Positions 38,701-62,358 of a stretch of 64,000 nt of DNA are shown piece after piece. The DNA comes from Giardia intestinalis (lineage: Eukaryota). The position numbers and the translations under genes are program-made. The stretch lies in NCBI GenBank assembly GCA_000002435.2, contig CM018791.1; one strand, written 5' to 3'. The first letter of the stretch is position 1. Each line of letters opens with the position of its first letter. The notes beneath the pieces were generated by a model. It did no database searches. It saw only the letters and a program-made list of their open reading frames with translations, and had not been told where the DNA came from.

Positions 38701-38824
38701 AGTAGTCCATGTCCGCGGCCATTGCGTAGGGGTTCTGGTGGTCACCAGTGGTCTCGTCCTGGCTCGTCCCGTAGTCCCCCCATCCATAGGCTTGGTATCC
38801 GCCCTGCTCCTGATCACCGTCCAT
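35747..38824 (-). CDS. PX-domain protein (C-terminal PX) with N-terminal acidic FGF motifs and a K/E-rich coiled-coil (GlPXD-family-like)
   Basis: C-terminal PX: 'YYIELGMDGRRLHISCRFSEVKELHAAISAAYPAATLPDIPPDRPYALGGWKPEFIRERARLLEAYL'. N-terminal 'EMFGFGAN' and 'DAFGFFGFDDAP'. The ORF-track start at 38881 is GTG; the first ATG at 38824 is preceded by 'cttaaaaaaATG'. Confidence 0.75.
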   Translation of the reverse strand: MDGDQEQGGYQAYGWGDYGTSQDETTGDHQNPYAMAADMDYYGAPYVAGDGSNPYAYAYGLPEDNAYNDPQELHNDEPKLEAGPIDDEPQDQPVDTCKDEAPRPENPDNDDVQPQYMLEPTNTNDPPAEQPDEMFGFGANLADGAAEVPDAIEPNDAFGFFGFDDAPSTPAAISEAPAPDLAAFSDVTPVMPFSDNDISAVPICVSRVPTPSDSVPIDPSPQTAFAQGPEVVDPAQAEDSAALLEHLRRVRKMLVIDQILRLRAAVGADRVFRDIQPQQLVPIESREEISMALPCDESLQQVLSEEPQCSQEVELLRSFSNADEYVSEDVVSRLQTDPETERSIREAEAIIEDAVVHTPEIKDLESLPDMETAPPLEHISNKTESDSFERIQDSDLIDELKSEISQWGQPALEEHSCASSVHRQVTPCDSTPDDFAPPDSHGPESLLLPSEDLVVDRVATPDVLDGSFGLAQSSDVCQEEPYIEQQVSVHEQEYEPTPEGVLQLPEETLDEFDIEMARKEAEMLEQARREEEEMLRQAEEDLYCQEEEPQGLEDETGHAALRTEQEVQEDSLVVSRLDTPAISLVVDNEDSDSLYVDRLNTPVVELHTPPKHLPKSHTKHKAEHQRDEHAKEKHHAAKQKKEKKLEKPEKEPKHEADKKKTSAIKKKPDLIKETKDAPAEKPQKINGDTSSSKPHSTIKSTTETRRADKKIAKKQQKDKKEPMERETSTTVSSLTESSHSEDIAVAEKLREEQLRKIEEQKKRQEEKELRRLLAEEKLRMDKEIERANRKADREYQKLEAERKRFAVNSQIESNSTTSSAIDTTNSGLLLDRELMREIRLRERRDKELQALRHNIEAQLERESDSVEYDPSVQTLSAIRRSGHGAASSIVRSNKHRDSGRHVSLFVDTSSCSSFYVKVLSHRTVIISGSRPFISYYIELGMDGRRLHISCRFSEVKELHAAISAAYPAATLPDIPPDRPYALGGWKPEFIRERARLLEAYLYSMHSITFVRTSNIYRQFLKAARC

Positions 38825-38973
38825 TTTTTTAAGATACAGAGGCAAAAGGCATCGAGGGGCGGCACTGCGGTCGTGTTTCACTTATTTTCCCCCGGCTGTG
38901 CGGATTCCTCTGTGGCAGCCACGCTACACTAGAGTATTCTTTAACAGTCCACAGGACTCCATGTGGGAAAAAA

Positions 38974-43894: not shown

Positions 43895-45943
43895 ATGATT
43901 AACACTTTGCTATATTTGAGCTTATCGTCAGCAGCTAACGTTGAGACGGAACCCCTGCGCAACTCGCCCTATCAGAACGGATTTGGGATAAGCTGTTCGT
44001 CGTCTGTAATGATAGCAGACTGCCAGCAGATGAAGTGTCTTCCCACGGGGCGGTACATTACGGTTTGCTCCTTGTGTAGGACAGGATTGGTCCCCATAAA
44101 TGGGGTGTGCGTCAATCAAACTACTGCGCATGACTACGGAGACATAAGTGTCTGTCAAAAGAATGATGAAACAAATCCCACCCATTGTATCTCTTGTTCG
44201 AAGAACGGGTCCTCCAATAATTATTTTCTCTTCTACGGAGGATGCTATCTTGCTACCCGGTGGCCTGGTAATAGCTATTGTCTGTCGGCATCTAATGGAG
44301 TTTGCACCAGTTGCAACACCAACGCCAAGATGGTCTTCACCAATCCTAACACTACCGCACAAGAGAAGTGCATCCTCTGCTCAGACAACATCGGCTTTGG
44401 TGGTTCAAAGGGTATCCAGGGCTGTGCGGATTGTATGAACAGAAACTCTGCTGGTTCCACGGACATTCAGTGCTTGCGCTGCAAGGCTTACGATACTGCG
44501 CCAATTGACGACGCGTGCATACCCTTTGGCCGGCACACCTGCGCAGATGGGCACTGCACTCGTTGTTACAAGACTCACATTTTCCATCTGGGCGGCTGCT
44601 TTACACGGGGAGGGCCGCGAGCAGAGGCTGTCTGTGCTAGCAACAACCAGTTTGAGATAGGCGACTATTCGGCATGCAAAGCCTGCGTCAACACCAGCGA
44701 GGCGCCAGACCAGGGGAACTGTAAAAAACACTCTGAGCAGAACAAGTGCACGAAGAGCTCGACTGGAAGTTGCTCAGATTGTCTTCATAGCAACCCCGGT
44801 TCAACGTTCCTATTCTATGGGGGCTGCTATGATGCGACTGATGTTCCCGGAAGGCTGATCTGCAGTACCTCAAGCGGAGGCTCTTGTACTAGTGTCGTTA
44901 ACAACTCAGGTGTATACTTGAACGGTAGGGCCTGCTACTTTTGTAATGACACAGCTAACGGTGGGATCTCCAACTGCCTCACTTGCTCTTATGAATCCAA
45001 CGCGGTGGTGTGTAGCAGATGTGGCTCTGGCACTGCTAGGTCGCTAGATGGAAGGGAGTGCCTTAGCGACTGCGTCTTTCCACTGAGAAAGTATTGCAGT
45101 AATGATGTTTGTATTTGTGAGTGCGAGGTAGGTCATTACCTCAGTGGTAACACCTGCTTAGCGTGCCACGAGTCCTGTGCCTTTTGTACAGGGCCATCGG
45201 CGGACCAGTGTGAGGCGTGTACGCAGGGCTGGCTTTGGCGGTACGATGAGAACAATCACTTGACCTGCGTTGGCGTTGACGGTTGCGGGGACGGGTTCTA
45301 TCCGGACGTGGCCGAGTCTGCCTGTATGCCGTGTGATATTAACAGGTGCAAGACATGTGTGAAGCAAAGCAACGTGCTCTGTACCGAGTGCTCTACTGGA
45401 TACATCTCACTGAATGAAACTGTGTGTGTTGATAGCTGCGCAGGAGAGTATATGGAACCTAGCGCCACGGGAGCCAGGCGCTGCATTTGCCAGGAGGGAT
45501 ATACAAAGAACGCCGACAGTTCCAGGTGTGTACCGGTGCATCCGTGCCCCTCCGATACCAGTGGGTGTAGCAGGTGCGACAGCGCTGGGTACTGCATGAA
45601 GTGCACGAACACTGATCATGTCATTCAGCTGGGCAGAAAGTCCTGCACTAGCGAGTGTCCTCTCAATTCGTCGCCCCTGTACGAATACATATGTGTGTGC
45701 AACGAGGGGTCTGTTCTAACCAATGGTACGTGTACTATCGTGCCCACCACGACCAGTGGGGTGCCGGTTACGACAATGATTATCGCAATTGCCGTTATCG
45801 TTATCGTCGTGATCGTGGGTGTTCTCGTTGGGGTTTTGTGCTGGTACTTCCTGCGCAATAAGAGAAAGCGGTCGATTCGTCCACGCACTGTCTCCAAAAT
45901 GTCCGAGAGTATGGGGCTCGTGGGCTCAGTTGACGACTTTTAA
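43895..45943 (+). CDS. High-cysteine membrane protein (HCMP/VSP-like): signal peptide, CXXC/EGF-like ectodomain, single C-terminal TM and a 34-aa cytoplasmic tail
   Basis: About 12% Cys, with many CxxC motifs and GGCY motifs ('FLFYGGCY' twice). C-terminal 'IIAIAVIVIVVIVGVLVGVLCWYFL' followed by 'RNKRKRSIRPRT...'. The tail is longer than the VSP CRGKA pentapeptide, so this is an HCMP rather than a VSP. Confidence 0.8.
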   Translation: MINTLLYLSLSSAANVETEPLRNSPYQNGFGISCSSSVMIADCQQMKCLPTGRYITVCSLCRTGLVPINGVCVNQTTAHDYGDISVCQKNDETNPTHCISCSKNGSSNNYFLFYGGCYLATRWPGNSYCLSASNGVCTSCNTNAKMVFTNPNTTAQEKCILCSDNIGFGGSKGIQGCADCMNRNSAGSTDIQCLRCKAYDTAPIDDACIPFGRHTCADGHCTRCYKTHIFHLGGCFTRGGPRAEAVCASNNQFEIGDYSACKACVNTSEAPDQGNCKKHSEQNKCTKSSTGSCSDCLHSNPGSTFLFYGGCYDATDVPGRLICSTSSGGSCTSVVNNSGVYLNGRACYFCNDTANGGISNCLTCSYESNAVVCSRCGSGTARSLDGRECLSDCVFPLRKYCSNDVCICECEVGHYLSGNTCLACHESCAFCTGPSADQCEACTQGWLWRYDENNHLTCVGVDGCGDGFYPDVAESACMPCDINRCKTCVKQSNVLCTECSTGYISLNETVCVDSCAGEYMEPSATGARRCICQEGYTKNADSSRCVPVHPCPSDTSGCSRCDSAGYCMKCTNTDHVIQLGRKSCTSECPLNSSPLYEYICVCNEGSVLTNGTCTIVPTTTSGVPVTTMIIAIAVIVIVVIVGVLVGVLCWYFLRNKRKRSIRPRTVSKMSESMGLVGSVDDF

Positions 45944-46556: not shown

Positions 46557-47285
46557 TCACGTGCCGTGCTCTTGGTGATATTCCTCTATCTCTTGGTTCG
46601 TCAGTAAAGGAATGCTCGCCCCTCCAAGGGTCATTGAAAAAGACGAAAGGTCAATCATCGCCCTGTACATCGAGAGCGCGCTCATCCCAATAAGCGTGTC
46701 GCAGACAGAGTCCAGGACTGCAAAGTTCATCGGTAAGAAAATATCTCCACACTGCATCAGGCAAATGTGGATTCTTCCGAGCATCCGAGTCGAGCCCACC
46801 CCAATCGCGCGCCCCGCATAACGGGTATCTATGTGGCCCTCTAGCCCACACGCACGCGCTGTTTTGCGGCCCATGGAGTTGAACTCTGCGCCCGTGTCGA
46901 TAACGCAGACGACCGGAGTCCCATTGATGGAGACGCGGATGTACAGAGATGGAACCGCGTTGACTAGGAGTCCTGGATAGTACTTGTTGATCTCAATGAG
47001 GTCCTGGTACACCTGCTCCGGGACCCCCGTCTGTTCCTGGGAAGAGGTGTCCCCGGATATACTGTAGAGCAGTGTAGACTTTTCCGGGATGCTTGAAAGC
47101 ACGGTCTCATCCCGGAGAACGCGGCCCTTGAACCAGAGAGCTGCCCCGGGGCCCGGTGGCGCGAACCCGTACTCTGACGCCAGGTGTGCGAGCAGCTGCC
47201 CCGCGCGTGCCCGCACATCGACAAGGGCCTCCACAGCAACGTCTTCTGCGAGCCGGACGTGATAAAGGAGCGCGGGAGGGGCCAT
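46557..47285 (-). CDS. DDI1: Ddi1-like protein: N-terminal ubiquitin-like domain plus retropepsin-type aspartyl protease
   Basis: Protease signature 'VVCVIDTGAEFNSM' (D-T-G-A) plus 'LIGMSAL'. The ORF-track start at 47567 overlaps the peroxiredoxin gene in another frame; the first ATG at 47285 gives 'MAPPALLYHVRLAED...' with a ubiquitin-like fold. Confidence 0.75.
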   Translation of the reverse strand: MAPPALLYHVRLAEDVAVEALVDVRARAGQLLAHLASEYGFAPPGPGAALWFKGRVLRDETVLSSIPEKSTLLYSISGDTSSQEQTGVPEQVYQDLIEINKYYPGLLVNAVPSLYIRVSINGTPVVCVIDTGAEFNSMGRKTARACGLEGHIDTRYAGRAIGVGSTRMLGRIHICLMQCGDIFLPMNFAVLDSVCDTLIGMSALSMYRAMIDLSSFSMTLGGASIPLLTNQEIEEYHQEHGT

Positions 47286-47317
47286 GGCGGTGTCCGAAAA
47301 ATACGAAAGGGACAGAA

Positions 47318-47324
47318 ATTCACT
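47318..47324 (-). terminator. Putative polyadenylation signal AGTGAAT for the peroxiredoxin gene
   Basis: The minus strand reads 'TAAgtggtgtAGTGAATttc'. It lies 8 nt after the stop at 47332-47334. Confidence 0.5.
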
Positions 47325-47331
47325 ACACCAC

Positions 47332-47937
47332 TTACTTCTTGAACGTCTTGGAGAAGTACTCCTTCTTCTTCTCGGGGTCGGGGATGATAGTGTCGTTCTT
47401 CTCGGGGGTCCAGCCGCACGGGATGACGCCGCCGGTTTTATCAGCGTACTGGAAGGCCTGGACCAGGCGCATGGCCTCCTCCACCGAGCGACCCACTGGA
47501 AGATCGTTGATCGTGACGTGGCGAACGACGCCCTTGTCAGAGACGATGAACATCCCGCGGAGCGCAATGCCGGCGTCCTCGACCAGAACGCCGAAGTCGC
47601 GGGCCATCTTGTGGTTCGTGTCGGCGAAGAGGTCGCACTTGCACGTCCCGATGCCGCCCTCGTTCTGGCCCTGGAGGCACCAGGCGTAGTGGCTGTAGAC
47701 GGAGTCCGTCGAGCCGATGATGATCTCCGCGTTGCACTTCTTCTTCAGCTGCTCAGCCAGATTCGAGAAGTGGATGATCTCCGAGGGGCAGACGAAGGTG
47801 AAGTCGAGCGGGTAGAAGAAGACAATCAGGTACTTGCCCTTGTAGTCAGAGAGCTTGCGCTTGGCGAACTTAAGCTCAGGGGTGACGACGTCGACCTCGA
47901 AGTCGGGGCAGGGCGTGCCGGGGATGGGGACGGGCAT
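47332..47937 (-). CDS. Typical 2-Cys peroxiredoxin (thioredoxin peroxidase)
   Basis: Peroxidatic Cys motif 'FTFVCPSEI'. Resolving Cys 'VIPCGWTP'. The first ATG at 47937 is preceded by the initiator 'aaaaattaaaATG'. The ORF-track N-terminal extension (from 48030) is out of context. Confidence 0.9.
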   Translation of the reverse strand: MPVPIPGTPCPDFEVDVVTPELKFAKRKLSDYKGKYLIVFFYPLDFTFVCPSEIIHFSNLAEQLKKKCNAEIIIGSTDSVYSHYAWCLQGQNEGGIGTCKCDLFADTNHKMARDFGVLVEDAGIALRGMFIVSDKGVVRHVTINDLPVGRSVEEAMRLVQAFQYADKTGGVIPCGWTPEKNDTIIPDPEKKKEYFSKTFKK

Positions 47938-51547: not shown

Positions 51548-53347
51548 ATGTCTAATAGGTTTACCACCCAGACGGTGTTGGACTCCGTCCTCAAGAGCCG
51601 GGGCCTGTCCAGCTCAGACACGGAAATGCATGAACTCCCTGCTAGGTGGTCAGCAGTGGCGTCACACCTGTCTTCTTTTTTGCAGTGCGAAAATAACCCG
51701 CTGGAGTGCTACACAGCGATGTATGAGGCGGTCATAAGCCAGCCATGTCTCTCCTTCGAGCAGGACTGCCAGTGTGGGTCGTGCTCAGAGCGCGTGACGG
51801 AGTTCTTCCATTTGGGACCTTGTTCTCACAAGCTCTGTAAAGCCTGCCTCAGAAAGATGTTTGACCAACTCAATGATGAATGTCTGGTCTGCAATGAACC
51901 TATTAGAGAGCTCGCCTTCTGCAAACAGCCTGGCTCCATGCCTCCTCCACCGGCGCTTGTGCCGCCGCCTCTTGCTCTTCCTACCAAGGCCACCCCTGCC
52001 CCTGCACCCGCCTGCGAAGAGTGCCCTGTCTTTGCTTCTATTCTTAAAAAGAATGGTCTGCCACCAGACACGTCCGGAATTGTCCATGGATACAAGAAAA
52101 TCAAACAGATTAATTTACTGGAAGATGACTACATATCGTCTCCTCCTACGGGACAGACCCTTATTCCGGAGGAGGACTTGATATACCTCAGGGACTATAT
52201 GAAGTTTCAGTTCCTACACTTCTTCGAGGAAGTCGATGCCAGCGAGACTATCTTTTGCGCATGGAAGGGCGGCGACGCGGCTGAGCACCAACTCGAGTGT
52301 CCTCTCCGCGAAGATACGTGCAAGAATAAGGCACTTGGTTGCAGCTTTATGCAGCCATACATCATTGTAGCGTATCACGGGATAAACTGCGAGAATATAT
52401 GCCTCTACGAAAGTCAGCCGTGCCCTCTATGCAATAAGACAGTACTGAACAAGGACATGTACACCCATGAGGTCACTTGCTCTAAGAAGCTCATAGAAGA
52501 GCATAAGGAGAAGGTCAAGTCTTCGCAGAAAGAGTACATCGCTGGGGCTCAAGCTACTTTCGCTGCTGAGGCCTCCAAGGAAAACTCTCCTATGAAGAGC
52601 GCGTCTCCCAACAATCCGAATAGCAATCCAAGCATCGTCTCTCCTGAGAACAGGTCCGATGATGACATCAAGGGTATCACGATTAGGGATGCCTGCGAAA
52701 ACATGAACGTGCTGGGAGAGATGTATTGCGACCTTGTGACAGCTGCTCGCCCAGATATATACTCTAGCACCTCCAGCGCTGTCAACTCTTCTACTGACGT
52801 AAGGGGAAGCAGGGAGCTTTTACGCGATCCAACGGAGATTGTTGTGATAGGGCCTGCTGAGCTCTCACCTGAACAGGTCAAAGACATAAAAAGAACCAAG
52901 TCTCCCAAGTCTCCGAAGAGGTCTGGTGCATCGGAAAAGAACGATAACTCGAGGAAAGAAAGGAAGGGAACATCAGAGGCGCGTGTCTTATCTTACGAGG
53001 TCTGCTCCACTGGGTCTGGCCATCCGTTTGTGGTCTACAAGATCGAGCTCCCAAGCCAGGACGGCGGAGAGAGCGTAGTCATCCATAAGCGAATGAAGGA
53101 GATCAAGGCGTTCCACAAGCGCCTGCAGCGCAACTTTCCAAGTATCACGCTGCCCAAGCTTCCGCAGGACAGGCCTTGGGCACTCGGAGGGAACAAGCTT
53201 AAGTTTGTTCAGGAGCGCTCCAGACTTTTGGAGGCATATTGTGGAGACATCAATCACAATGCGATGATATATAAATCGAGGATTTATAAAGACTATATTA
53301 ACGAGCAATGCGCTTATGTGCCGATCACTTATGCTCTTAAAGAGTAG
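51548..53347 (+). CDS. RING-finger plus TRAF-type zinc-finger protein with a C-terminal PX domain
   Basis: RING-HC 'CGSC..(11)..CSHKLCKAC..(11)..CLVC'. Cys/His-rich TRAF-like finger 'CPLREDTCKNKALGCSF...CPLCNKTV...HEVTC'. C-terminal PX 'VVYKIELPSQDGGESVVIHKRMKEIKAFHKRLQRNFPSITLPKLPQDRPWALGGNKLKFVQERSRLLEAY'. Confidence 0.7.
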   Translation: MSNRFTTQTVLDSVLKSRGLSSSDTEMHELPARWSAVASHLSSFLQCENNPLECYTAMYEAVISQPCLSFEQDCQCGSCSERVTEFFHLGPCSHKLCKACLRKMFDQLNDECLVCNEPIRELAFCKQPGSMPPPPALVPPPLALPTKATPAPAPACEECPVFASILKKNGLPPDTSGIVHGYKKIKQINLLEDDYISSPPTGQTLIPEEDLIYLRDYMKFQFLHFFEEVDASETIFCAWKGGDAAEHQLECPLREDTCKNKALGCSFMQPYIIVAYHGINCENICLYESQPCPLCNKTVLNKDMYTHEVTCSKKLIEEHKEKVKSSQKEYIAGAQATFAAEASKENSPMKSASPNNPNSNPSIVSPENRSDDDIKGITIRDACENMNVLGEMYCDLVTAARPDIYSSTSSAVNSSTDVRGSRELLRDPTEIVVIGPAELSPEQVKDIKRTKSPKSPKRSGASEKNDNSRKERKGTSEARVLSYEVCSTGSGHPFVVYKIELPSQDGGESVVIHKRMKEIKAFHKRLQRNFPSITLPKLPQDRPWALGGNKLKFVQERSRLLEAYCGDINHNAMIYKSRIYKDYINEQCAYVPITYALKE

Positions 53348-53426
53348 GGTGGCCGCTCGGCTGTGGAAAGAATATTCAATTTGACTGGCGGAAGACCGGC
53401 AGTAAATTACTTTAAAAACAATCGCC

Positions 53427-55535
53427 ATGGAGGAGTTTTTTGGGTTTTCAGACGCGCCGGTTGCTCCTGGCCACGTCTCCGAGGAGGCTCTGTTCTTTGG
53501 CTTTGATGACGCCTCCGCTAACCAGCCGCAGCCCCCCGTCTCCATTCCATTTCCAGTTATCAACCAAGTCGCGACCATCCCAAGGTTTCAGGAGTTCCAA
53601 GAGTTCCAGGAGTATGACTCGCCAGAGCTTCGGGCAGCCAGGCAACCCAAGTTCCTGGATCCAGCACTATTTGTGGGCCCTGGGAGAGAGGACGTCATTC
53701 ATGATGTGGTGATAGATGAGGCAAAGTACGACTTCGGCTACGACCTTGACTACCTGCGAGAAACCACAGATGAGATGAAGACCGAAGAGGACGAGGAGGA
53801 CATAATAAGTAGGCTTCCCTACGGCTTTTCCTCCAACTACACATACAAGGACGATATGGCAGATCTTATGCGTAGCAGCCCTGTGAAAGACATTGTTCTC
53901 CCCCGGGTTGGTGTCACTGTAGAGTGCTCCGACAGTGACATGGAAGCAGAATTCAACCGTCTGCAAGCTATAGACTTCAACGAGAAGCGCAAGGACATAG
54001 AACAGATGCTTCGCATTCGTAGAGAGCAGGAGCACCAGAGAAGGCAAGAGGAAGAGCAAGAACGACTGCGGCAAGAGGCCCTTAAAGCTCAGAGCTCAGT
54101 TCCATCCCGGATCCCCTCTATTCCGGCCGCCGCCCCATCTGCCACTATTGCCTCTGATAGAGCAGTCGGACCTGCTGCCGTTCCAAGCCTTCCTCCCCTG
54201 TCTCAGCCAATGGTTGACGTTGCTCCGCAGCCAGAGCCCCAGCCAATTATGGATCTCCTGATAGCTCCAAAGGCAGTGGAGGCGGTGTATGCCCCGTTAC
54301 AAGCTACCCCTGTACAGCCTATCCATACCCAATCTTCCATTTTAGTGCCATCAGCTCCACCAGCGGCTACTCTGGCCCCTCAAGTATGCTCTATTGAGCA
54401 ACCTCCCTCAGAGGATCCTCAGCTAGAGGAAATGTTCGGATTCCAGTCACAACCCGATATTAGTTACTCCCCAGAAGTCAAGGATCTAGATAAGATAGAG
54501 CCAGACTTGACCGCAGATCCTGCCACAAATCCGGTTATCGTGGACCAGCCTGTCTCAAAGTCGTGGAGCGCAAGAGGATCGATACAGCAGCAGCTAGACA
54601 ATCTACAGAGCGAAATAAAGCAACTAGAGCAAGACTCCATGTTTTCTAAAGAAGATAGAAAGCGGAGCAGACACGCAGAAGCCCGTAAATATCTCGAAAC
54701 CAGAACATATACAGACAACTACGACGTTTTCAGACCGTCGCACCATCTACAGAAGTACTATGCAGCGAAGAAGCCAAAACCAAAGCCAAAGGAAACCATT
54801 TATTCCCCATACTCAGAGACGGAGCTATCGAACCAGCGCATGCAAGTGCGAGCAGAGCTGGAGGCTCAGAAGCACAAAGAGCAGCGGGAGCGCAACTACT
54901 ACGAGAAAATTGAGATCAAAAGGCTAACAGCCATGTACTCCAAGCTCGAATCTGAATTAACCGTCAAAGCCATCAGTGAGGAGCTTGCACAAGAAAAACG
55001 TCAGGAATTTGAAAAGTACTTCAAGAGCGCGTCCCTCCTTGAAAAGAGCTCTGACATGTACACCAGCACACACGATGATAAGACCATACGCATACAGGTA
55101 TCTGAGCATAACGCTTTGCATCTCCCCCGGTCCCTCTTCTTCACCCCTGATGGGAAGTATAAAAACTACGTTAGATACCTGGACTATAGGAAGGTTTTCG
55201 ACCGCTTCACGCACACGCAGGTCCTTATGTTCATATTCGCGGTGTCCTCGCAGGAGCGAAAGTTGAAGTGCATTTCCAAGACTTACGAGGACTTTCATGT
55301 CCTTCACAAGGAGCTTGTGGGGGCCTTCGGGTACTCAGCAGTACCTGGGCTTCCCTCCTTCCGATCCATGAACATGGGTGGCGGTAGACATGAGGTCATT
55401 CATGACACTCAAAAGAGACTAACCAAGTACCTGACTGAAATCAACAACGTCCAGGCTCTGCGCACATCCGCCATCTACAGGAGCTTCCTCAAGCACCAGG
55501 ACCTCAACTTTTTCCAGGGGATGCATCGCCACTAG
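53427..55535 (+). CDS. PX-domain protein (C-terminal PX) with N-terminal acidic FGF motifs and a coiled-coil
   Basis: Starts 'MEEFFGFSDAP...EEALFFGFDDAS'. Later 'LEEMFGFQSQPD'. C-terminal PX 'TYEDFHVLHKELVGAFGYSAVPGLPSFRSM...VIHDTQKRLTKYLTEI'. Confidence 0.7.
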   Translation: MEEFFGFSDAPVAPGHVSEEALFFGFDDASANQPQPPVSIPFPVINQVATIPRFQEFQEFQEYDSPELRAARQPKFLDPALFVGPGREDVIHDVVIDEAKYDFGYDLDYLRETTDEMKTEEDEEDIISRLPYGFSSNYTYKDDMADLMRSSPVKDIVLPRVGVTVECSDSDMEAEFNRLQAIDFNEKRKDIEQMLRIRREQEHQRRQEEEQERLRQEALKAQSSVPSRIPSIPAAAPSATIASDRAVGPAAVPSLPPLSQPMVDVAPQPEPQPIMDLLIAPKAVEAVYAPLQATPVQPIHTQSSILVPSAPPAATLAPQVCSIEQPPSEDPQLEEMFGFQSQPDISYSPEVKDLDKIEPDLTADPATNPVIVDQPVSKSWSARGSIQQQLDNLQSEIKQLEQDSMFSKEDRKRSRHAEARKYLETRTYTDNYDVFRPSHHLQKYYAAKKPKPKPKETIYSPYSETELSNQRMQVRAELEAQKHKEQRERNYYEKIEIKRLTAMYSKLESELTVKAISEELAQEKRQEFEKYFKSASLLEKSSDMYTSTHDDKTIRIQVSEHNALHLPRSLFFTPDGKYKNYVRYLDYRKVFDRFTHTQVLMFIFAVSSQERKLKCISKTYEDFHVLHKELVGAFGYSAVPGLPSFRSMNMGGGRHEVIHDTQKRLTKYLTEINNVQALRTSAIYRSFLKHQDLNFFQGMHRH

Positions 55536-55611
55536 CGCTGAGGACTACTTCCTCATGTAAACTTCTTTCTGCGGTTTTTTAAAAGGCGCCTTAAAAAAAA
55601 GTGTCTGACGG

Positions 55612-58600
55612 ATGGAGGACATTGCCTACACCGACGGATACGCTGCGCAGTACGGAGATAATTATGCATATGATGGGTATGGCTATGGTGGTGACCTGGC
55701 TGTGGGAGATTACAATCCGTACGGAACGGACTATGGTTATGATGCAGGAGGCTACGACTATGGTGCCGGGTACGGTGGGTATGGGAATCAAGAGACTGGA
55801 TATGGCGATCAGACATATGGATATGGTGAGCCTGCTGAGCAACCGCAAGACAGTTTATCGCTTAAGCTGGACGAGCCGAAGCCGTTTACTGAGCAAGACG
55901 ATGGGAGGTCCCTCGTCGTCCGTACTGATGCGGCGTCTGTGTCCATGGATCCTTTTAGTGCGCCCATAGATACAGTGACAGAGCCCATAGGTTCACAGAC
56001 GCACACGAGCTCCGCTTTTCCACCTGTCTCTCAGGACTTGCTGAACTCTATCAGGGTCCAGCAAGAGACTAGTGGAAACCTGAGTAAGTCTCCAAGCAAA
56101 ATCTCAAGCAGGCCTGCCTCTGCTAGACTTGACGAGCTTGATAAGGTAATCGAAGAAGATGCAGAACAGCTTAATAGGGAGGCCAAAACAGATACTCACG
56201 TTACTGGTGCTGCCCCCGATACTAGCGATATGTTTGGCTTTACTGACCAACCGGCGGCACCAACAGCTACCGAAGAGCCTGTCGCAACTGCTGGTGACGA
56301 CATGTTTGGATTTGGGCTAGAAAGTGACGCGCACGATGCAACGGTTCAGCCCCCAGTTGAAGATGCAGGGCCTGCTCTACCTGATAAAGAAGCTCCCTCC
56401 ACTGAGGCCGAAGACGATATGTTTGGCTTCGCCACATCTCCTCAGGAGACCATAGCCAGCCCTCCAGCAGGCTCCACCGCCCCTGCTGCTGAGCCTGTTG
56501 ACGACATGTTTGGCTTCACCGATCCTGCCGTCGAATCAGCGGCTACTGCAGAGCCAGGAACAATGGAGGGCGATGATATGTTTGGATTTGGCCCCTCAGA
56601 AAGCACACCTAAAGATCCTGACACTGATGCATCTGCAGTAGCTAAGGATGTAACGGTGGACGCTCAAGATGCTGCCGATGATATGTTCGGTTTTGATGGA
56701 GCGGGCTCCCCTGCAGAGGCTCCTGCACAATCAACCGAAGCAGTAGCAAGCCCAGTTGCTGACTTGGAGACGGACAGCATGTTTGGCTTTGATTCTCCGC
56801 CAGCCCCAGCAGATAATACTACTACTGTGCCTGTGGATGATTCGGCGGATGACCTGTTCGGATTTGGGCCTTCCACTTTAGATGCACAAGGTGAGCCCGC
56901 CCAAGATGCTCAGCCAGATATTCAAGATGTGGCACAAGTCTCCGCTGACAGCATGTTTGGCTTTGACTTGCCAGCTGATGCCTCGGCAACTGTGGAGCCA
57001 TCAACTACCGGCCTTGCTACTGAGAAGCCAGAGGATTCTCCTGTCGATGACATGTTCGGCTTTTCTCCAAACGAAGCAGCAGCTACAGCCAAGTCAGATG
57101 AGGATCAAGAGATAACGCCGGTGAACACCAAGACTTTAGACGAACCATTGTCAGTAGCAAATGATTACACCCAACCAACAGCTGGGCCCTCAGATGACAT
57201 GTTCGGCTTTGGAAACAGCGCAGATCTTCCTCAAACAGATTCTGTACCCCACTCTGGAGCCACGGCTGATAGCATGTTTGGATTTGACTCTGTACCAGCA
57301 ACAGGGGCCTCGGTAGAACCACCAACAGAGACGCCAGAGCTTCACGACGCATCTCAGACACAACCTACTTTGGACATGCCAACAATTCCAGAGCACATCC
57401 CAACTATAGAGGATAACCAAACGGACCTGTCACATGAGAGTCAAAATGAGAGTCAAGTTGCAAGTGAAGAGTCTGATCAGCTAAGAGAGACCAATGAGAC
57501 GCTGGAAGGAGAGGAAATGAATAAGGAACTGGCACAAGAGCCCGCTGTAGAGGATATGTTTGGCTTTGGGGATGCATCAGCGCCAGTGGAGGATTCCTCA
57601 ACAGAAAAGGCCACTGAAAGCCACCCAACTGAGCCACCTAATTTAGCAGATCTTCCACCTCCTGTGTCTGCATCATCACTGCTTCCCGTGCAGACACTTG
57701 AGTCTGCGAAGCAATCCGCAAGAGCTGCAACTACCCCAGTGGCCGATATGGCCATTGATATAGATTCTATGATCTCGGCTGCACTAGTTCCACAGCAACC
57801 CTCCCCCGCTCCTGAACAGAAGGTCGAGGACCAAGTTCTTGACGAATCCTCGCCTAACGTGATAACTGCAGAGCTTCCTCCCATTGTTGTGAAGGGATCT
57901 TTAGAAGAGGCCAACGACAAGTCTGCCGCAGAGTCGCAACATGAACCAGTAGAGCTCTCGGAGGACCGTGACCTCAGTAAAGATATCGAGCTGGTTGCTC
58001 AAGATCCTCTACCGGCCGAGGAGGATACGCAGGATATTTTTGTTGAGCCAGCTGTGCCAGTTGAAGCTCTAGAAAGGTTGGCGATCAGCGAAACGTTCAT
58101 CAAGCTCCAGGAGGAGCTTCAATTTACATACCTGATGCCAGAGCCTAACCGCGAAGAACTAGACAAGCTCCAGATGACTGATCATGAGCAGCAGCTTATT
58201 CAACTTAAGGACGAAGCGGAGCGGCTACAGAGAGAGAATAAGGTGCTCGCAGGCAGAAGTGCGGCTCCCAGGCATCTCCACCCTAACGAGTTTGATAGCA
58301 AATCTATCTCAGTTAGCTTCTTCGAGGGTCTTCTGAATGAGCCCACCCACAGTGATGGCATATCCCTAACGACTGGGGAAGAGCTTCGGCTCTTGGCGAT
58401 TCTGGAGCAGGGAGACTACGAAGCACTTGATGCTCTTCACGGCATGTCTCCAGAGGAGCTTCAGTTAATGGAGCAACGAGAACGCGAGTTCAATTTGAAG
58501 CTCAAGGAACTCACCGACCGCCGAGACGAGCTGTTGTACAAGGATGATACGGAGGCTTTAAAACTCATTGAGGAAGAGATCTGGGCCTTTGTAGACGCTG

Positions 58601-61047
58601 AGGAAGAAAAGAAAATGCGCATCCAAGCGGCAGACGACCTTTTGAAAAAGCGTGCTCAGGAGGAAGAGGACCGACGTCGTGCTGAGATAGAAGCAAAGAT
58701 CAAGGAGGAGCAGGATCGTGTTGCAGAGGAGCGCCGACTCCAGGAAGAGATGATAGCGCTCCAAAAGAAGCAGCAGCAAGAGTATGCAGAGCAGGAGACT
58801 AGGAAAGCAGATCTTCTCCGTGAGGCCATGGAAAAGGAGCAACTAGAGCGAATTGAGGAGGAGCAGCGCATAAAAGCAGAGGCACGACGACGCCTAATCG
58901 ACGATCTGGAGGCCACAGCTGAACGCGCAGCCGCCGAGGACCGGATACGGGTTAAGGCTGAGTTGGAAGAAATGGCCAGGATCAAAAAGGAACTGGAGGA
59001 GGCTGCCCGGACGGCCAGCGAAGAGAAGCGAAAGCTTCTTCTACAACAGAAGGAGCAATTGGAAAGAGAAATGGCCGAGACAGCAAGACGACACGAGGAA
59101 GACGTGGCGCGTAGGCACAAGGAGCTGCAAACTCTTCATGAGGAGCGGCGGAAGATGCGCGAACAACGCTTAGCCAGCTCAGAACCGATGGATGAGCTTC
59201 TTCGCGAAGATGGCAACGATGCCTCTGCCGATCCGTTCTCATATGCGTCTCTGGACATTGAGCGCAGAATCAGGGAAATGAAAGCCCAGTTAGAGAAGGA
59301 GATGACCGAAAAGATGGCCCTAGAGCACGCTGACCTCAATGCTCTAGAGCAGGAGTTGGCTGCTAAGAAGCTGTCGACCTTACAAGCAGAACGACTCTTA
59401 AGCACGGCTGCAAGCGATACAGTGGCACGGCTCGATAACGAGGATCGTCTCTTTAACGAAGCAATGGATGCCAAGCGCCAGGAGCTGCTTCTTTTGAAAG
59501 AACAGTATGGACTCGTGCGTCACCAGAACGAAAGTCAGCGCGCCTTGCACCTAGAGGAGCAGAGAAAGGCTAAGAAGTTAGCGAGGTTAGTCGAACAAGT
59601 TGCCGAGCTAGCCGAGAAGAAGCACAATTTAGAAAGAAAGATTGCCCATGGAAACAAAGAGTTTCACAAGAAAGAGAGCAAGCTGGTGGCTTCTAACAGC
59701 AAAGGCGCACTCAAAGCGTTGAGAAAGGAGCACGCTAAGGAGCACGAGGCGTTGGAGACGCAGCTCTCTAGCGTCTCAGAGCAGTTACGCAGAGCAAAGA
59801 AGCAGCTCAAGGTACTTAACCCCCAGGGAGAGACTTCTGATATGGACCGATCTCTTAGTGTCAAAGACTATTTGCGCTCCACAGATCGGAGTGAGAAAGA
59901 GCAAGAAGTGTCCGCTGCAGATAAGGACCATTCCCAGCCGCGTCTGTCCGTCTTCGAGGGAGGCTCTCTTGGCCAACCTTCGTTGGTAAGCGGCCATGGA
60001 ATTGGAACAGCGATGTCAACAGGTGTGGACCACGGAGATGGAGGGAGAAAGCAACATGCATCCAGTGACTTGCCTGTAGCGCTGCAGAAGCTGAGAGAGG
60101 AGCACGCTCGCAGGCTTGAGAAGATTGAGCAGCGACGAGCAGCCTTTGCTTCGGAAAGGGAGCAGCTTCAAGCCCAGGCACACGCGCTCGAGGCTCAGCT
60201 TTCCAAGCCCGTCAACGTTCCTGATTCTAAGCTACGCACCAGAGAGCAGCGCAAGCAGATCATTTTCGCAGAGATGAATAGAATGGAAAAGCTGTCGAAG
60301 GCACACATGGTTGAAGTTAAGCCTCAGATCCCAGAGAAAACAATCGATGACATTCTTAACGAACGCCGCAAACGACACGGGGAGGAGCGTGAGCAACTAA
60401 AGAACATGGCAGTGCGCTTTACATCTGCGTACGATCGGCATTCCCGGGTCTCTGTTAACATGGACAGCAGCGACGACGAATGGAATGACCTAGCTGCACG
60501 GACCTCCTCACGTTATGCAGATATTTCTGCTAAGCCACGCTCGATGCAGGCGCAGGTCCGCCAATTTGCATCTGATCGGATAGATCCTGCCTTCAATAGC
60601 TACATCGAGGCCCCTGTGCGACCTGGCTATGAGTCCTCTCTCCTCTCGTATGTGAAGGTGAGCTCTGACCCTACTACGTGCCACCCGACCAAGTTTGTGG
60701 CTCGGCTCACTGCACACACCTGGTGCATTGAGCAGAAGAGCAAGCCGTATGTGGTCTATACGTTTACAATCAGCACAGAGAAGGGTGTCTTTGAAGTAGC
60801 GAAGCGCTTCTCTGAGCTGCGTGAGCTGGACAAGGCGCTCCGTCGCGTTTTCCCAACAGTTACTTTGCCCAAGTATCCGTCGTCTATGGGAGGGAAGTTT
60901 ACTGATGAACAACTGGAGGAGCGGAAGCGGCTCCTTGGGCGCTATATGAGCCAGCTGAATCAGATCGCGGTCATTAGAACAAGCCAGGTGTACAAGGAGT
61001 TTATACAGATGAAGGTGAGACACGATATCCTTGTATATCACCGGTGA
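55612..61047 (+). CDS. Giant PX-domain protein (1811 aa): a 13-copy acidic 'DDMFGF' motif array, then a long E/R/K-rich coiled-coil, then a C-terminal PX
   Basis: N-terminal Y/G-rich segment. 13 copies of (D/E)(D/S)(M/L)FGF(G/D/T/S) at irregular spacing of about 25-35 aa. A coiled-coil of about 650 aa. C-terminal PX 'YVVYTFTISTEKGVFEVAKRFSELRELDKALRRVFPTVTLPKYPSSMGGKFTDEQLEERKRLLGRYM'. Confidence 0.8.
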   Translation: MEDIAYTDGYAAQYGDNYAYDGYGYGGDLAVGDYNPYGTDYGYDAGGYDYGAGYGGYGNQETGYGDQTYGYGEPAEQPQDSLSLKLDEPKPFTEQDDGRSLVVRTDAASVSMDPFSAPIDTVTEPIGSQTHTSSAFPPVSQDLLNSIRVQQETSGNLSKSPSKISSRPASARLDELDKVIEEDAEQLNREAKTDTHVTGAAPDTSDMFGFTDQPAAPTATEEPVATAGDDMFGFGLESDAHDATVQPPVEDAGPALPDKEAPSTEAEDDMFGFATSPQETIASPPAGSTAPAAEPVDDMFGFTDPAVESAATAEPGTMEGDDMFGFGPSESTPKDPDTDASAVAKDVTVDAQDAADDMFGFDGAGSPAEAPAQSTEAVASPVADLETDSMFGFDSPPAPADNTTTVPVDDSADDLFGFGPSTLDAQGEPAQDAQPDIQDVAQVSADSMFGFDLPADASATVEPSTTGLATEKPEDSPVDDMFGFSPNEAAATAKSDEDQEITPVNTKTLDEPLSVANDYTQPTAGPSDDMFGFGNSADLPQTDSVPHSGATADSMFGFDSVPATGASVEPPTETPELHDASQTQPTLDMPTIPEHIPTIEDNQTDLSHESQNESQVASEESDQLRETNETLEGEEMNKELAQEPAVEDMFGFGDASAPVEDSSTEKATESHPTEPPNLADLPPPVSASSLLPVQTLESAKQSARAATTPVADMAIDIDSMISAALVPQQPSPAPEQKVEDQVLDESSPNVITAELPPIVVKGSLEEANDKSAAESQHEPVELSEDRDLSKDIELVAQDPLPAEEDTQDIFVEPAVPVEALERLAISETFIKLQEELQFTYLMPEPNREELDKLQMTDHEQQLIQLKDEAERLQRENKVLAGRSAAPRHLHPNEFDSKSISVSFFEGLLNEPTHSDGISLTTGEELRLLAILEQGDYEALDALHGMSPEELQLMEQREREFNLKLKELTDRRDELLYKDDTEALKLIEEEIWAFVDAEEEKKMRIQAADDLLKKRAQEEEDRRRAEIEAKIKEEQDRVAEERRLQEEMIALQKKQQQEYAEQETRKADLLREAMEKEQLERIEEEQRIKAEARRRLIDDLEATAERAAAEDRIRVKAELEEMARIKKELEEAARTASEEKRKLLLQQKEQLEREMAETARRHEEDVARRHKELQTLHEERRKMREQRLASSEPMDELLREDGNDASADPFSYASLDIERRIREMKAQLEKEMTEKMALEHADLNALEQELAAKKLSTLQAERLLSTAASDTVARLDNEDRLFNEAMDAKRQELLLLKEQYGLVRHQNESQRALHLEEQRKAKKLARLVEQVAELAEKKHNLERKIAHGNKEFHKKESKLVASNSKGALKALRKEHAKEHEALETQLSSVSEQLRRAKKQLKVLNPQGETSDMDRSLSVKDYLRSTDRSEKEQEVSAADKDHSQPRLSVFEGGSLGQPSLVSGHGIGTAMSTGVDHGDGGRKQHASSDLPVALQKLREEHARRLEKIEQRRAAFASEREQLQAQAHALEAQLSKPVNVPDSKLRTREQRKQIIFAEMNRMEKLSKAHMVEVKPQIPEKTIDDILNERRKRHGEEREQLKNMAVRFTSAYDRHSRVSVNMDSSDDEWNDLAARTSSRYADISAKPRSMQAQVRQFASDRIDPAFNSYIEAPVRPGYESSLLSYVKVSSDPTTCHPTKFVARLTAHTWCIEQKSKPYVVYTFTISTEKGVFEVAKRFSELRELDKALRRVFPTVTLPKYPSSMGGKFTDEQLEERKRLLGRYMSQLNQIAVIRTSQVYKEFIQMKVRHDILVYHR
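56227..57570 (+). repeat. In-frame array of 13 degenerate repeats encoding the short linear motif D-D-M-F-G-F (DNA core 'gayrryatgttyggmtty') separated by divergent acidic spacers
   Basis: Recurring 'gatatgtttggcttt', 'gacgacatgtttggattt', 'gatgatatgttcggtttt', 'gacagcatgtttggcttt' and similar at about 56227, 56299, 56416, 56500, 56572, 56672, 56776, 56848, 56950, 57043, 57193, 57270 and 57553. Confidence 0.7.
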
Positions 61048-61053
61048 ATTGCG

Positions 61054-62175
61054 TTACGTCTCGTGTGACACGGACGTCTCTGGCTGGGAACCCTTCTGGG
61101 CGTATGAGACTTCACAAGTGGACTCATTGTCTTGTGCCTGGCAAACTCTTGAAAAAGCGGGAGTGTCGAGGGCCTTTGACTCTCCTGCCGTTGCGCGTGT
61201 GCTCATATACAATTCAGAGAATGAAGGGGCGTTGTAAATTGACGTTGTCTGGGGGTGTCCTGCTTCGGTGCGTTCATGGCGTCGCTGCGGTCTGTCAGGG
61301 CTGTTCAAGCTGGAGCCATCCCCGAGAGATGATTCGGCTGCTCGCCAGGGTTTGGCGGCAATGGAGGGCAAGACACCGACCGGCTTCTGGTGGACCATGG
61401 AGTCGCTGAGCATCTTGGTAGAGCTACCCGTGGACTTTGCCGAGCCAGACATCATTGTACGGGTGACTGACCTCTTCGGGGTCTTGTATATGAGCTTGAT
61501 CGGGCTTTTTCCGGGGGACGACATGCTCTGAATTGCCATCATCGATTCGCTCTTACTGTACTCATGCATTATCTCCGAACGGAAGTCGCTGAATTCCTGG
61601 ATGCTCTGCAGTGCAGGCTTTTCTGTGCACATGAGCATCGCCGGCGCCCGCGTGTTGAAATATTCTTCTTCCAGCTTTGCGATTGAGTGGGTAGGCTTAA
61701 TATTGGGAATAGGGACTTTCCGGGTAGGGTTGCTTGTAAGCTTAGTGCTTCGCGCCCTTTTCTCAGGATTTTTGCTCTGAATGGCAGCTATCCAGGCAGC
61801 AGTCAACTCTTGCTCTTCACGCATTCGCCTCTTCACAGCATTCATGGGCGAGCCTGTCTTGGAGTTGAGATCACAGTAATCGATGGGACGCTGTTGAACA
61901 AGAAGCCGCGCCTGGCTATACTCCCCCGCTCCCTTGGTTATCTCAGTTATCTTGCGGTATACGCGCTTATTTTCCTTATCTACCTGCCGCGCATTTTCGT
62001 GCTCCCGAAACGGGATGTGGTTGCTGGTGAAGCGACTGATGTGAGTATATTGTTTGGGGGCTGCGTTATCTACAGACGGCTTCAGTCGTGCCAGGCGCTG
62101 CTTATCCTTAAAGTCGCGCTCTTCTCGCCACTTCTTATCAAGAATTCGAGACGCCGTTGGAATGGCACGATCCAT
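61054..62175 (-). CDS. Hypothetical basic, Ser-rich protein
   Basis: Open frame. The second ATG at 62175 has the context 'cctaaaaATG'; the ORF-track ATG is at 62196. The N-terminal half is K/R-rich. No domain recognised. Confidence 0.4.
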   Translation of the reverse strand: MDRAIPTASRILDKKWREERDFKDKQRLARLKPSVDNAAPKQYTHISRFTSNHIPFREHENARQVDKENKRVYRKITEITKGAGEYSQARLLVQQRPIDYCDLNSKTGSPMNAVKRRMREEQELTAAWIAAIQSKNPEKRARSTKLTSNPTRKVPIPNIKPTHSIAKLEEEYFNTRAPAMLMCTEKPALQSIQEFSDFRSEIMHEYSKSESMMAIQSMSSPGKSPIKLIYKTPKRSVTRTMMSGSAKSTGSSTKMLSDSMVHQKPVGVLPSIAAKPWRAAESSLGDGSSLNSPDRPQRRHERTEAGHPQTTSIYNAPSFSELYMSTRATAGESKALDTPAFSRVCQAQDNESTCEVSYAQKGSQPETSVSHET

Positions 62176-62358
62176 TTTTAGGACTACAAAAAGCATTTAC
62201 CCCAGTGGGACATAGTTATCAATATATGCAACCAAGATATGCATCAGCAGGCTGTGTGTCTAGAGTAGTAGAAACTTGCAAGTGACAGAGTTGTCAGATC
62301 CCTCTGCCCCTGATAGATTTTAGAATCAATCAATGCTACAGATCTACTGCGGCACGCA

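Follow-up and report, generated by a model that had tools for sequence, protein, structure and literature searches.

Adaptors of the AP180/CALM and epsin type combine a lipid-binding domain with a long disordered stretch that carries many short clathrin- or AP2-binding motifs, which in AP180 are spaced a few tens of residues apart. The clathrin N-terminal domain binds peptides of the clathrin-box consensus in a degenerate manner and at several sites (PMC5182127), and AP180 carries multiple copies of a D(L/I)(L/F) motif, regarded in one publication as a degenerate form of the clathrin box (PMC5004861). Many acidic Leu/Phe motifs in a long disordered tail are also known from FAM21, in which 21 copies of the LFa repeat (L-F-[D/E]3-10-L-F) bind retromer VPS35 (PMC3374753). 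Giardia has no ANTH (AP180-type) proteins, and its single epsin is not located at the peripheral vacuoles, as published. Here we analyzed a 64,000-nucleotide stretch of the Giardia intestinalis genome (contig CM018791.1 of assembly GCA_000002435.2; "the window" below is this whole stretch), which holds four genes for phox-homology (PX) domain proteins, GlPXD1 to GlPXD4 (PXD1 to PXD4 below). Three of the four proteins, PXD1, PXD2 and PXD4, carry a short linear motif, Phi-FGF, that is under strong purifying selection, and the four genes form a cluster that already existed before G. intestinalis and Giardia muris split.

The four open reading frames (ORFs) match G. intestinalis WB proteins exactly, each annotated as "PX domain-containing protein," and we took the assignment of accessions to GlPXD names from Table 1 of Cernikova, Faso and Hehl 2020 (PMC7058353). 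The genes are as follows.

51548 to 53347, + strand: GlPXD3 (GL50803_16596, A8B341, XP_001710118.1), 599 amino acids
53427 to 55535, + strand: GlPXD1 (GL50803_7723, A8B343, XP_001710120), 702 amino acids
55612 to 61047, + strand: GlPXD2 (GL50803_16595, A8B344, XP_001710121), 1811 amino acids
35747 to 38824, - strand: GlPXD4 (GL50803_42357, A8B322, XP_001710106), 1025 amino acids

PXD3, PXD1 and PXD2 lie head-to-tail on the + strand with spacers of 76 to 79 bp, and PXD4 lies on the - strand 12.7 kb upstream of this trio. A preliminary description of the window, made from the sequence alone, had placed three tandem genes on the + strand and a fourth on the - strand about 13 kb away, and its coordinates and strands were correct. 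The RefSeq model of PXD4 in WB starts at the ATG at 38824 (1025 amino acids); an in-frame upstream GTG gives an ORF of 1044 amino acids (35747-38881, - strand), and this 1044-amino-acid form is called in many assemblies.

The PX domains of GlPXD1 to GlPXD4, their vacuole location, their lipid binding and their clathrin/AP2 interactomes were all published between 2016 and 2020. All four proteins are found at the peripheral vacuoles (Zumthor 2016, PMC4954726; Cernikova 2020, PMC7058353), with PXD1 and PXD2 at the interface between vacuole and plasma membrane, together with clathrin, and PXD3 forming a coat around the vacuoles. In published lipid overlays, PXD1 preferred phosphatidylinositol 4,5-bisphosphate [PI(4,5)P2], PXD2 bound phosphatidylinositol 3-phosphate (PI3P) and PI(4,5)P2, PXD3 bound PI3P, and PXD4 bound phosphatidylinositol 3,5-bisphosphate [PI(3,5)P2] and PI(4,5)P2. 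Clathrin heavy chain (GlCHC) and AP2 co-purify with all four proteins, and PXD2 and PXD4 co-purify reciprocally (PMC7058353). PXD1 and PXD2 are strong reciprocal partners of GlCHC and the only phosphoinositide binders reported to pull down the clathrin light chain analogue GlCLC, and overexpression of PXD2 was reported to produce vacuole clusters positive for clathrin and PI(3)P. The description of PX proteins in Giardia as readers of phosphoinositides at the peripheral vacuoles applies literally to these genes (PMC7058353), and the lipid-overlay and tagging experiments that the preliminary description had proposed are already in published work.

What in these proteins might recruit clathrin? 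The authors of the 2016 study considered that PX proteins are possibly monomeric adaptors and named no clathrin-binding element, and a 2018 review (PMC6115752), in its summary of Jana et al., terms GlPXD1 to GlPXD4 "PX domain-only" proteins without other special sequences. The words tandem, duplication, RING and MFGF are absent from Cernikova 2020 (PMC7058353), in which the legend to Fig. 1A, taken by itself, refers to "positions of repetitive motifs." The term "clathrin box" is never mentioned in Zumthor 2016 (PMC4954726), no paper in the open-access literature searched contains both Giardia and "clathrin box," and a full-text literature search for "MFGF" returned only FGF gene names. The Phi-FGF motif is apparently undescribed.

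Counting [MFL]FGF gave 13 copies in PXD2 and three in PXD1; PXD4 has two and an additional AFGF that overlaps, and PXD3 lacks the motif. Fewer than 0.01 copies were expected in shuffled versions of each protein. The sites are listed below.

53436 to 53504, + strand: N-terminal motif pair of PXD1, EE-FFGF-SD (residues 4-7) and AL-FFGF-DD (residues 23-26)
54432 to 54443, + strand: third motif of PXD1, EE-MFGF-QS (residues 336-339)
56230 to 57567, + strand: PXD2 array of 13 [DE][DES]-[ML]FGF-[DGTSA] motifs (residues 207-652)
38336 to 38425, - strand: PXD4 motifs, DE-MFGF-GA (residues 134-137) and the overlapping pair ND-AFGF-FGF-DD (residues 157-163)

The earlier statement that three of the four proteins carry acidic FGF motifs was thus borne out, with 13, 3 and 3 copies. 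Its placement of the motifs near the N-terminus was loose: the PXD2 array is at residues 207-652 and the third PXD1 copy at residue 336.

Conservation of the motif was analyzed over 53 instances in nine proteins, 32 from G. intestinalis assemblages A and B and 21 from G. muris and a related Giardia lineage. They give the consensus [DE][DES]-[M27/L15/F9]-F-G-F-[D21/G19], where the first F and the G are present in 53/53 instances and the second F in 51/53. In PXD2, each of the 13 copies keeps its position between assemblages A and B, and the identity of the motif cores is 49/52 (94%) versus 171/402 (42.5%) elsewhere in the region (Fisher P = 8e-14). Of the three core changes, two are M to L and one is L to V. 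Within the FGF codons of PXD2, the two assemblages differ at 10 synonymous and 0 nonsynonymous positions. Similarly, assemblages A and B show 100% identity over residues 331-345 of PXD1, around its third motif, compared with 68% for the region in which these residues lie, and both N-terminal PXD1 copies are kept in assemblage B (as IFGF and FFGF). The G. muris orthologues carry two copies in PXD1 (one of them LFGFDA at residue 11), seven in PXD2 and three in PXD4 (LFGFGQ, FFGFGE and FFGFDP), all in regions beyond alignment with G. intestinalis, and PXD3 has zero copies in every lineage. Phi-FGF is a short linear motif under strong purifying selection, and we consider it very probable, judging from this conservation, that it is functional.

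Two trivial sources of the motif were tried and rejected. Chance or low complexity was ruled out by the shuffled proteins and by the rarity of the motif elsewhere in Giardia DNA: in about 154 kb from three lineages it is confined to these genes, save for two isolated matches in hydrophobic contexts with few or no acidic residues nearby. A DNA tandem repeat or gene conversion was ruled out as the source of the PXD2 array because Tandem Repeats Finder detected no DNA repeat of the period of the array and the flanking DNA of different copies has an identity of 0.37, so that the array does not represent a young DNA repeat. Two proteins from Logan contigs, P0049 (1584 amino acids, seven motif copies) and P0064 (516 amino acids, two copies), are near but not identical to PXD2 and PXD1 of G. 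muris, respectively, and appear to come from a Giardia lineage related to G. muris.

Known trafficking motifs did not account for the pattern either. None of DPF/DPW, FxDxF, NPF, WxxF, the W-box or the gamma-ear (GAE) ELM pattern recurs in these proteins. FFAT and LIR motifs, considered as well, have a spacing that does not seem to fit Phi-FGF. We also rejected FG-nucleoporin repeats, because the spacers are acidic (22% D+E, 0.2% Arg and 1.9% Lys) and the proteins have PX domains; they are, moreover, localized to peripheral vacuoles.

The motifs are embedded in proteins of differing layout, all ending in a PX domain. PXD1 consists of its three Phi-FGF motifs and a C-terminal PX domain. PXD2 begins with a Tyr/Gly/Asp-rich N-terminus, continues with an acidic disordered region that bears the 13 motifs and with a long charged helical region, and ends in the PX domain. 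PXD4 has a Tyr/Gly-rich N-terminus, FGF motifs, a charged region and the C-terminal PX domain. Besides the motifs, PXD2 has the following segments.

55612 to 55836, + strand: Tyr/Gly/Asp-rich low-complexity N-terminus (composition scan)
58459 to 59811, + strand: Glu/Lys/Arg-rich region (residues ~950-1400), 31 to 48% E+K+R with almost no Pro or Gly

The array copies of PXD2 are 24 to 94 residues apart in acidic surroundings rich in Ala, Pro, Thr and Ser. Residues 191-670 consist to 65% of A, D, P, T, E and S and contain no Trp and one Tyr, and all 26 Phe residues of this stretch lie inside the 13 motifs, which makes the motifs the sole hydrophobic features of this acidic disorder. Judged by composition, the Glu/Lys/Arg-rich region probably forms a coiled coil or a single alpha-helix. 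The first 80 residues of PXD2 contain 18 Tyr in both assemblages A and B and 17 in G. muris (L001, 16823-17060), compared with 2% Tyr in the whole protein. A weaker Tyr-rich version, with 11 Tyr, is present at the N-terminus of G. intestinalis PXD4 (38600-38824, - strand) and missing from that of G. muris. PXD2 and PXD4 are thus alike over their whole length, from the YG-rich N-terminus through FGF motifs and charged helix to the PX domain, and the YG-rich segment resembles a prion-like or "sticker" domain.

All four proteins were confirmed to end in a PX domain, as had been claimed. Against a Pfam PF00787 gathering cutoff of 21.6 bits the four ORFs scored 36.4, 39.2, 51.7 and 41.5 bits (36.4 for PXD3), and the G. 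muris orthologues scored 31.6 to 41.7 bits. A six-frame scan of the window with the PX profile returned exactly four PX domains, at the positions below (Pfam and six-frame profile scan).

52958 to 53335, + strand: PX domain of PXD3
55107 to 55532, + strand: PX domain of PXD1, divergent
60628 to 61044, + strand: PX domain of PXD2
35756 to 36145, - strand: PX domain of PXD4

A PxxP loop is found in all four domains. The Arg of the canonical R-[YF]-S-[DE]-F region is kept in PXD2 (KRFSEL), PXD4 (CRFSEV) and PXD3 (KRMKEI). PXD1, whose PX domain is only 18 to 24% identical to the other three, has no canonical PI3P-contacting Arg in either species (KTYEDF in G. intestinalis, KSYESI in G. muris), which fits the published preference of GlPXD1 for PI(4,5)P2. 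A core string that the preliminary description had offered as common to the four domains is a good fit to PXD3 and PXD4 and a partial one to PXD2; PXD1 fits it poorly.

Taken with the published step that the C-terminal PX domains bind phosphoinositides on peripheral-vacuole or plasma membranes, the motif leads us to propose that PXD1, PXD2 and PXD4 would act as multivalent clathrin adaptors or scaffolds that are anchored by their PX domains and are analogous in function to AP180 and epsin. Each Phi-FGF would dock with low affinity on the N-terminal beta-propeller of the clathrin heavy chain and might represent a variant, particular to this lineage, of the clathrin box L-Phi-x-Phi-[DE] and of the D[LI][LF] motif of AP180. 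PXD2, which has 13 sites and probably a coiled coil, could cross-link many legs of clathrin, which would fit both the static clathrin assemblies of Giardia and the clustering of vacuoles upon PXD2 overexpression. We regard this account as a whole, that is, an ancient cluster, PX anchoring and Phi-FGF docking of clathrin by PXD1, PXD2 and PXD4, as the best explanation at hand and rate its chances as about even. For the clathrin N-terminal domain as the receptor our confidence is a little lower, and we put it forward, from sequence resemblance, as a tentative candidate. Still more tentative is the possible reading of Phi-FGF as a clathrin-recruitment code specific to the genus Giardia, a re-invented clathrin box that, presented 13-fold on PXD2 and in two to three copies on PXD1 and PXD4, would cross-link heavy-chain terminal domains to phosphoinositide membranes.

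The likeness to the clathrin box (ELM LIG_Clathr_ClatBox_1; PMC5182127) lies in [LM]-F-G-F-[DE], which has the same hydrophobic register and acidic end. In addition, Phi-FGF lies in acidic disorder, and its host proteins co-purify with clathrin. D[ML]F, for its part, resembles the AP180 motif D(L/I)(L/F) (PMC5004861). Published work lends the proposal further support: the strong reciprocal partnership of PXD1 and PXD2 with GlCHC, their position alongside clathrin, their recovery of GlCLC, the lack of ANTH proteins in Giardia, an epsin located away from the vacuoles, and the 2016 suggestion of monomeric adaptors. In the G. muris lineage the LFGFD/LFGFE copies are exact matches to the ELM clathrin box (6 of the 21 copies pass), and 24 of all 53 match the pattern L[IVLMF].[IVLMF][DE] once M or F is allowed at position 1.

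Several observations weigh against clathrin docking through this motif. None of the 32 G. intestinalis copies matches the strict clathrin box, since position 1 is M (the typical residue), F or V, and position 5 is D or E in only about 45% of copies and often Gly (about 36%). Position 3, variable in the box, is an invariant Gly here, and the strict F-G-F is tighter than any known clathrin box and may mean a different receptor pocket. Furthermore, PXD3, which has no motif, is recovered together with GlCHC and AP2, reciprocally and strongly, in cross-linked co-immunoprecipitations (PMC7058353); the motif is thus not needed for membership in the network, and these co-immunoprecipitations do not discriminate between receptors.

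How close is the parallel with the described adaptors? PXD1, PXD2 and PXD4 resemble AP180/CALM and epsin in joining a lipid-binding domain to long disorder with many short motifs, and PXD2 may share with AP180 a multivalent, low-affinity logic as well as the spacing of its motifs. Unlike in AP180 and epsin, the lipid-binding domain is a PX domain at the C-terminus, so that the order is inverted, instead of an ANTH or ENTH domain; there is no homology, an invariant F-G-F forms the core of the motif, and a long charged helical region comes in between. In FAM21, as in the PXD proteins, multivalency would sense the density of a membrane coat. The LFa repeat differs in being bipartite, with two LF dipeptides around an acidic run, and in binding retromer, whereas Phi-FGF is single and compact and the published partners of the GlPXD proteins are clathrin and AP2.

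One alternative is that Phi-FGF binds AP2, through the alpha or beta2 appendage or the core, and would do for the PXD proteins what arrays of DPF/DPW, FxDxF and WxxF do for Eps15, epsin and AP180. Acidic-aromatic motifs within disorder are a typical kind of appendage ligand. Among the PXD proteins, PXD2, the one with 13 copies, is alone in pulling down all four subunits of AP2, alpha and beta reciprocally and strongly (PMC7058353), and the disordered region of AP180 is described as binding AP2 as well as clathrin (PMC11246429). Yet Phi-FGF is unlike any known appendage-motif consensus, the DPF, FxDxF and WxxF patterns are essentially absent from these proteins, and PXD3, which lacks the motif, binds AP2 alpha and beta equally strongly (PMC7058353). 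We regard AP2 as an unlikely receptor.

Could the partner instead be as restricted to Giardia as the motif itself? In an exhaustive HMMER search of 1.84 billion representative proteins for PX relatives, the motif was not found outside the Giardia lineage among the best 150 of 1803 matches. A partner specific to Giardia, for example Gl4259 (GlCLC/GlACLC, the analogue of the clathrin light chain), would make a genus-restricted, co-evolved pair with it. An orthologue of Gl4259 is known only in G. muris (PMC9490929), and GlCLC was reported only in the interactomes of PXD1 and PXD2. However, PXD4 has the motif and no reported GlCLC interaction (PMC7058353), GlCLC could co-purify simply through clathrin, and the restriction of the motif to Giardia is judged on those best 150 matches only. 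We consider docking on Gl4259 or a similar partner quite unlikely.

The concentration of the aromatic residues of the disordered PXD2 region in its motifs would also fit a reading without any receptor, in which the FGF motifs are aromatic "stickers" that, together with the Tyr/Gly-rich N-termini, drive multivalent self-association or condensation of the PXD proteins where vacuole and plasma membrane meet, like cohesive FG repeats. The Tyr/Gly/Asp-rich N-termini of PXD2 and PXD4 point the same way (17 to 18 Tyr among residues 1-80 of PXD2 in each of three lineages), as do the large clusters upon PXD2 overexpression and the reciprocal co-purification of PXD2 and PXD4, both published. Stickers normally tolerate aromatic swaps, whereas F-G-F is invariant in 51 to 53 of 53 instances and keeps conserved acidic flanks, which argues for a defined binding pocket, and the strongly acidic net charge disfavors homotypic condensation. 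We hold the sticker explanation to be very unlikely.

Whichever partner it has, a compact, selected motif confined to PXD1, PXD2 and PXD4 offers a direct experimental handle on a candidate clathrin- or adaptor-binding determinant. If the proposal of clathrin docking is true, a deeply divergent eukaryote devoid of AP180 would have rebuilt, on a PX scaffold, an adaptor made of a lipid-binding domain and a multivalent motif array. Phi-FGF would then add a new variant to the catalogue of clathrin-binding motifs and could be the missing determinant behind the unique static, non-vesiculating clathrin assemblies of Giardia.

We then asked about the age of the cluster. GlPXD5 and GlPXD6, which complete the six known Giardia PX-domain proteins, are sited elsewhere in the genome (PMC7058353). 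Four of the six PX genes are located inside 25.3 kb. For a genome that we take to be roughly 12 Mb, the probability of such clustering by chance is about 4e-6, and because the arrangement is so far from chance, an origin of the cluster by local duplication is likely. The preliminary description had gone further and seen in the locus a duplication hot-spot, with local duplication followed by domain shuffling in which one copy gained RING and TRAF-type fingers and another a 13-copy motif array. The adjacency and common orientation of the genes, their clustering and the differing architectures of the paralogues all speak for this reading, taken as one of recent duplication. The comparison with other Giardia genomes, which had been proposed as a check, speaks against it. 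In assemblage B the order is U-PXD3-PXD1-PXD2-e, the same as in WB. In G. muris it is Ank-IscS-x-U-PXD3-PXD1-[Ank-kinase]-PXD2-a-b-c-d-e-PXD4-HD-Nup..., and the four PX genes share a strand. The order PXD3-PXD1-PXD2 is thus kept in both, and the same four members with their architectures were in place before the G. intestinalis/G. muris split, with the gene copy number unchanged between the species. The motif, too, is common to PXD1, PXD2, PXD4 and their G. muris orthologues and was not gained by one paralogue; only the copy number differs (13 versus 7 in PXD2).

Sequence divergence of the PX domains agrees with this. Orthologue pairs are 33 to 58% identical and linked paralogues 18 to 35%, no closer to each other than PXD3 and PXD4 are to an unlinked Giardia PX paralogue of 189 amino acids (P0052/P0221; 36% identical to each), which is either PXD5 or PXD6 and lies in a genomic context without another PX gene. 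The preliminary description had itself named tandem genes no more similar to each other than to unlinked PX genes as a result that would refute it. In a neighbour-joining tree of 114 PX columns with 200 bootstraps, orthologue pairs were recovered for PXD2 (195/200), PXD3 (144/200) and PXD4 (194/200), and a clade uniting the tandem genes was recovered in 0/200. The small number of columns limits what this tree says about the order of the duplications. The hot-spot reading is largely refuted as to timing, and we give next to no credence to a recent burst of duplication and shuffling. We are, by contrast, close to certain of the gene identities together with the ancient cluster. The hot-spot reading is corrected to that of an ancient and stable cluster: the paralogues probably arose by local duplication before the genus Giardia diversified, and the cluster has since stayed stable except for one inversion and a few gene insertions. 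In the same tree, three environmental PX proteins, P0051 (750 amino acids, from a JGI metagenome), P0054 and P0055, group with PXD3 and the 189-amino-acid paralogue. They have no FGF motifs and may be diplomonad relatives usable as outgroups.

The inversion was traced with an anchor gene and a block of neighbors.

61054 to 62196, - strand: anchor gene "e," CFAP97/Hemingway-like (Pfam Hmw_CFAP97), directly after PXD2 in WB

The G. muris orthologue of "e" (reciprocal BLAST, 50% identity, E = 2e-72) directly precedes PXD4, and the block of HD, Nup and amino-acid-transporter genes beside PXD4 in WB matches the block downstream of PXD4 in G. muris (reciprocal BLAST). From these two adjacencies it follows that one inversion of the segment [Ank...e] interconverts the WB and G. 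muris layouts. One breakpoint lies exactly between PXD4 and the Ank gene (38974) in WB and between "e" and PXD4 in G. muris. In G. muris an inserted Ank-kinase gene separates PXD1 from PXD2, and four genes separate PXD2 from "e." In WB, extra genes are found between x (42562) and U (48186), namely a VSP-like gene (43895-45943) and a DDI1-like aspartyl protease gene (46557-47567).

PXD3, the paralogue with zero FGF motifs, has a different architecture: a RING, then TRAF-like zinc fingers, then the C-terminal PX domain.

51773 to 51892, + strand: C3HC4 RING finger of PXD3 (residues 76-115)
52256 to 52480, + strand: Cys/His-rich region of PXD3 with TRAF-type spacing (residues 237-311)

None of the eight RING ligands (C76, C79, C92, H94, C97, C100, C112 and C115) varies among assemblages A, B and E of G. 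intestinalis or in G. muris. Pfam RING models matched below their gathering scores (E = 2.4e-5 to 6e-3), zf-C3HC4_3 at E = 2.4e-5 and 24.5 bits with a cutoff of 27, and the G. muris orthologue gave the same pattern. A phmmer search of PDB returned the RING domains of RNF168, TRAF6, RING2 and RNF8 (E = 2e-3 to 1e-2). The AlphaFold2 model of PXD3 has a mean predicted local distance difference test (pLDDT) score of 47.8 and is confident only in the RING segment (pLDDT 69 to 84). For this segment Foldseek placed TRAF6 RING structures on top (probability 0.99 to 1.00, E ~0.03, 30% identity, root mean square deviation 3 Å).

The fingers are less clear. Their spacing, C258-x6-C265-x11-H277-x7-C285 and C292-x2-C295-x11-H307-x3-C311, involves residues that are invariant across Giardia, and the region weakly matches the TRAF-type zinc finger of FLN29/TRAFD1 (2d9k, E = 0.023), with low model confidence there. 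Pfam zf-TRAF gave no match to PXD3 up to E = 1. Of the RING and TRAF-type fingers claimed for this protein, the RING is supported, with eight invariant ligands and a TRAF6 RING as its best match, whereas the TRAF fingers come down to Cys/His spacing and the weak FLN29 match.

The N-terminal half of PXD3 is like the TRAF6-type N-terminus in placing a C3HC4 RING before C-x(2-6)-C-x11-H-x(3-7)-C fingers. It is unlike TRAF proteins in that PXD3 has a C-terminal PX domain in place of a TRAF-C/MATH domain and in that its Pfam scores are sub-threshold. With a PX domain, a TRAF6-like RING and TRAF-like fingers but no motif, PXD3 would more likely be a membrane-bound E3 ubiquitin ligase or a coat component. 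From its domains it is plausibly a PX-anchored putative E3 ligase, which goes undiscussed in the literature searched.

Between the RING and the TRAF-like fingers lies a short stretch, residues 161-197 (VFASILKKNGLPPDTSGIVHGYKK), that resembles residues 26-62 of ubiquitin. We rejected a ubiquitin domain here as probably spurious: the low E value comes from nine polyubiquitin repeats of 1.7 bits each that were summed, and a single ubiquitin gives E ~0.7.

Two further genes had led to the window being called trafficking-rich.

824 to 1486, + strand, and 7022 to 11704, - strand: the two genes (a P4 flippase and a putative SNARE)

The P4 flippase is solid (PhoLip_ATPase_C, E = 5e-56), but the putative SNARE is sub-threshold (PF05739, E = 2.6e-4, 21.3 bits versus a cutoff of 26.8), which leaves the claim weak. 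The window also encodes a Ser/Thr/Pro-rich protein of 628 amino acids (33179-35065, + strand) without a Pfam match, the C-terminal third of which is full of FG, GFG and FSFG repeats. Its repeats include FGFKPP, FSFTAP, GFGGFGGG and FGSFTFS, and it looks like an FG-nucleoporin. The G. muris orthologue of this protein is syntenic and only weakly similar (E = 4e-8).

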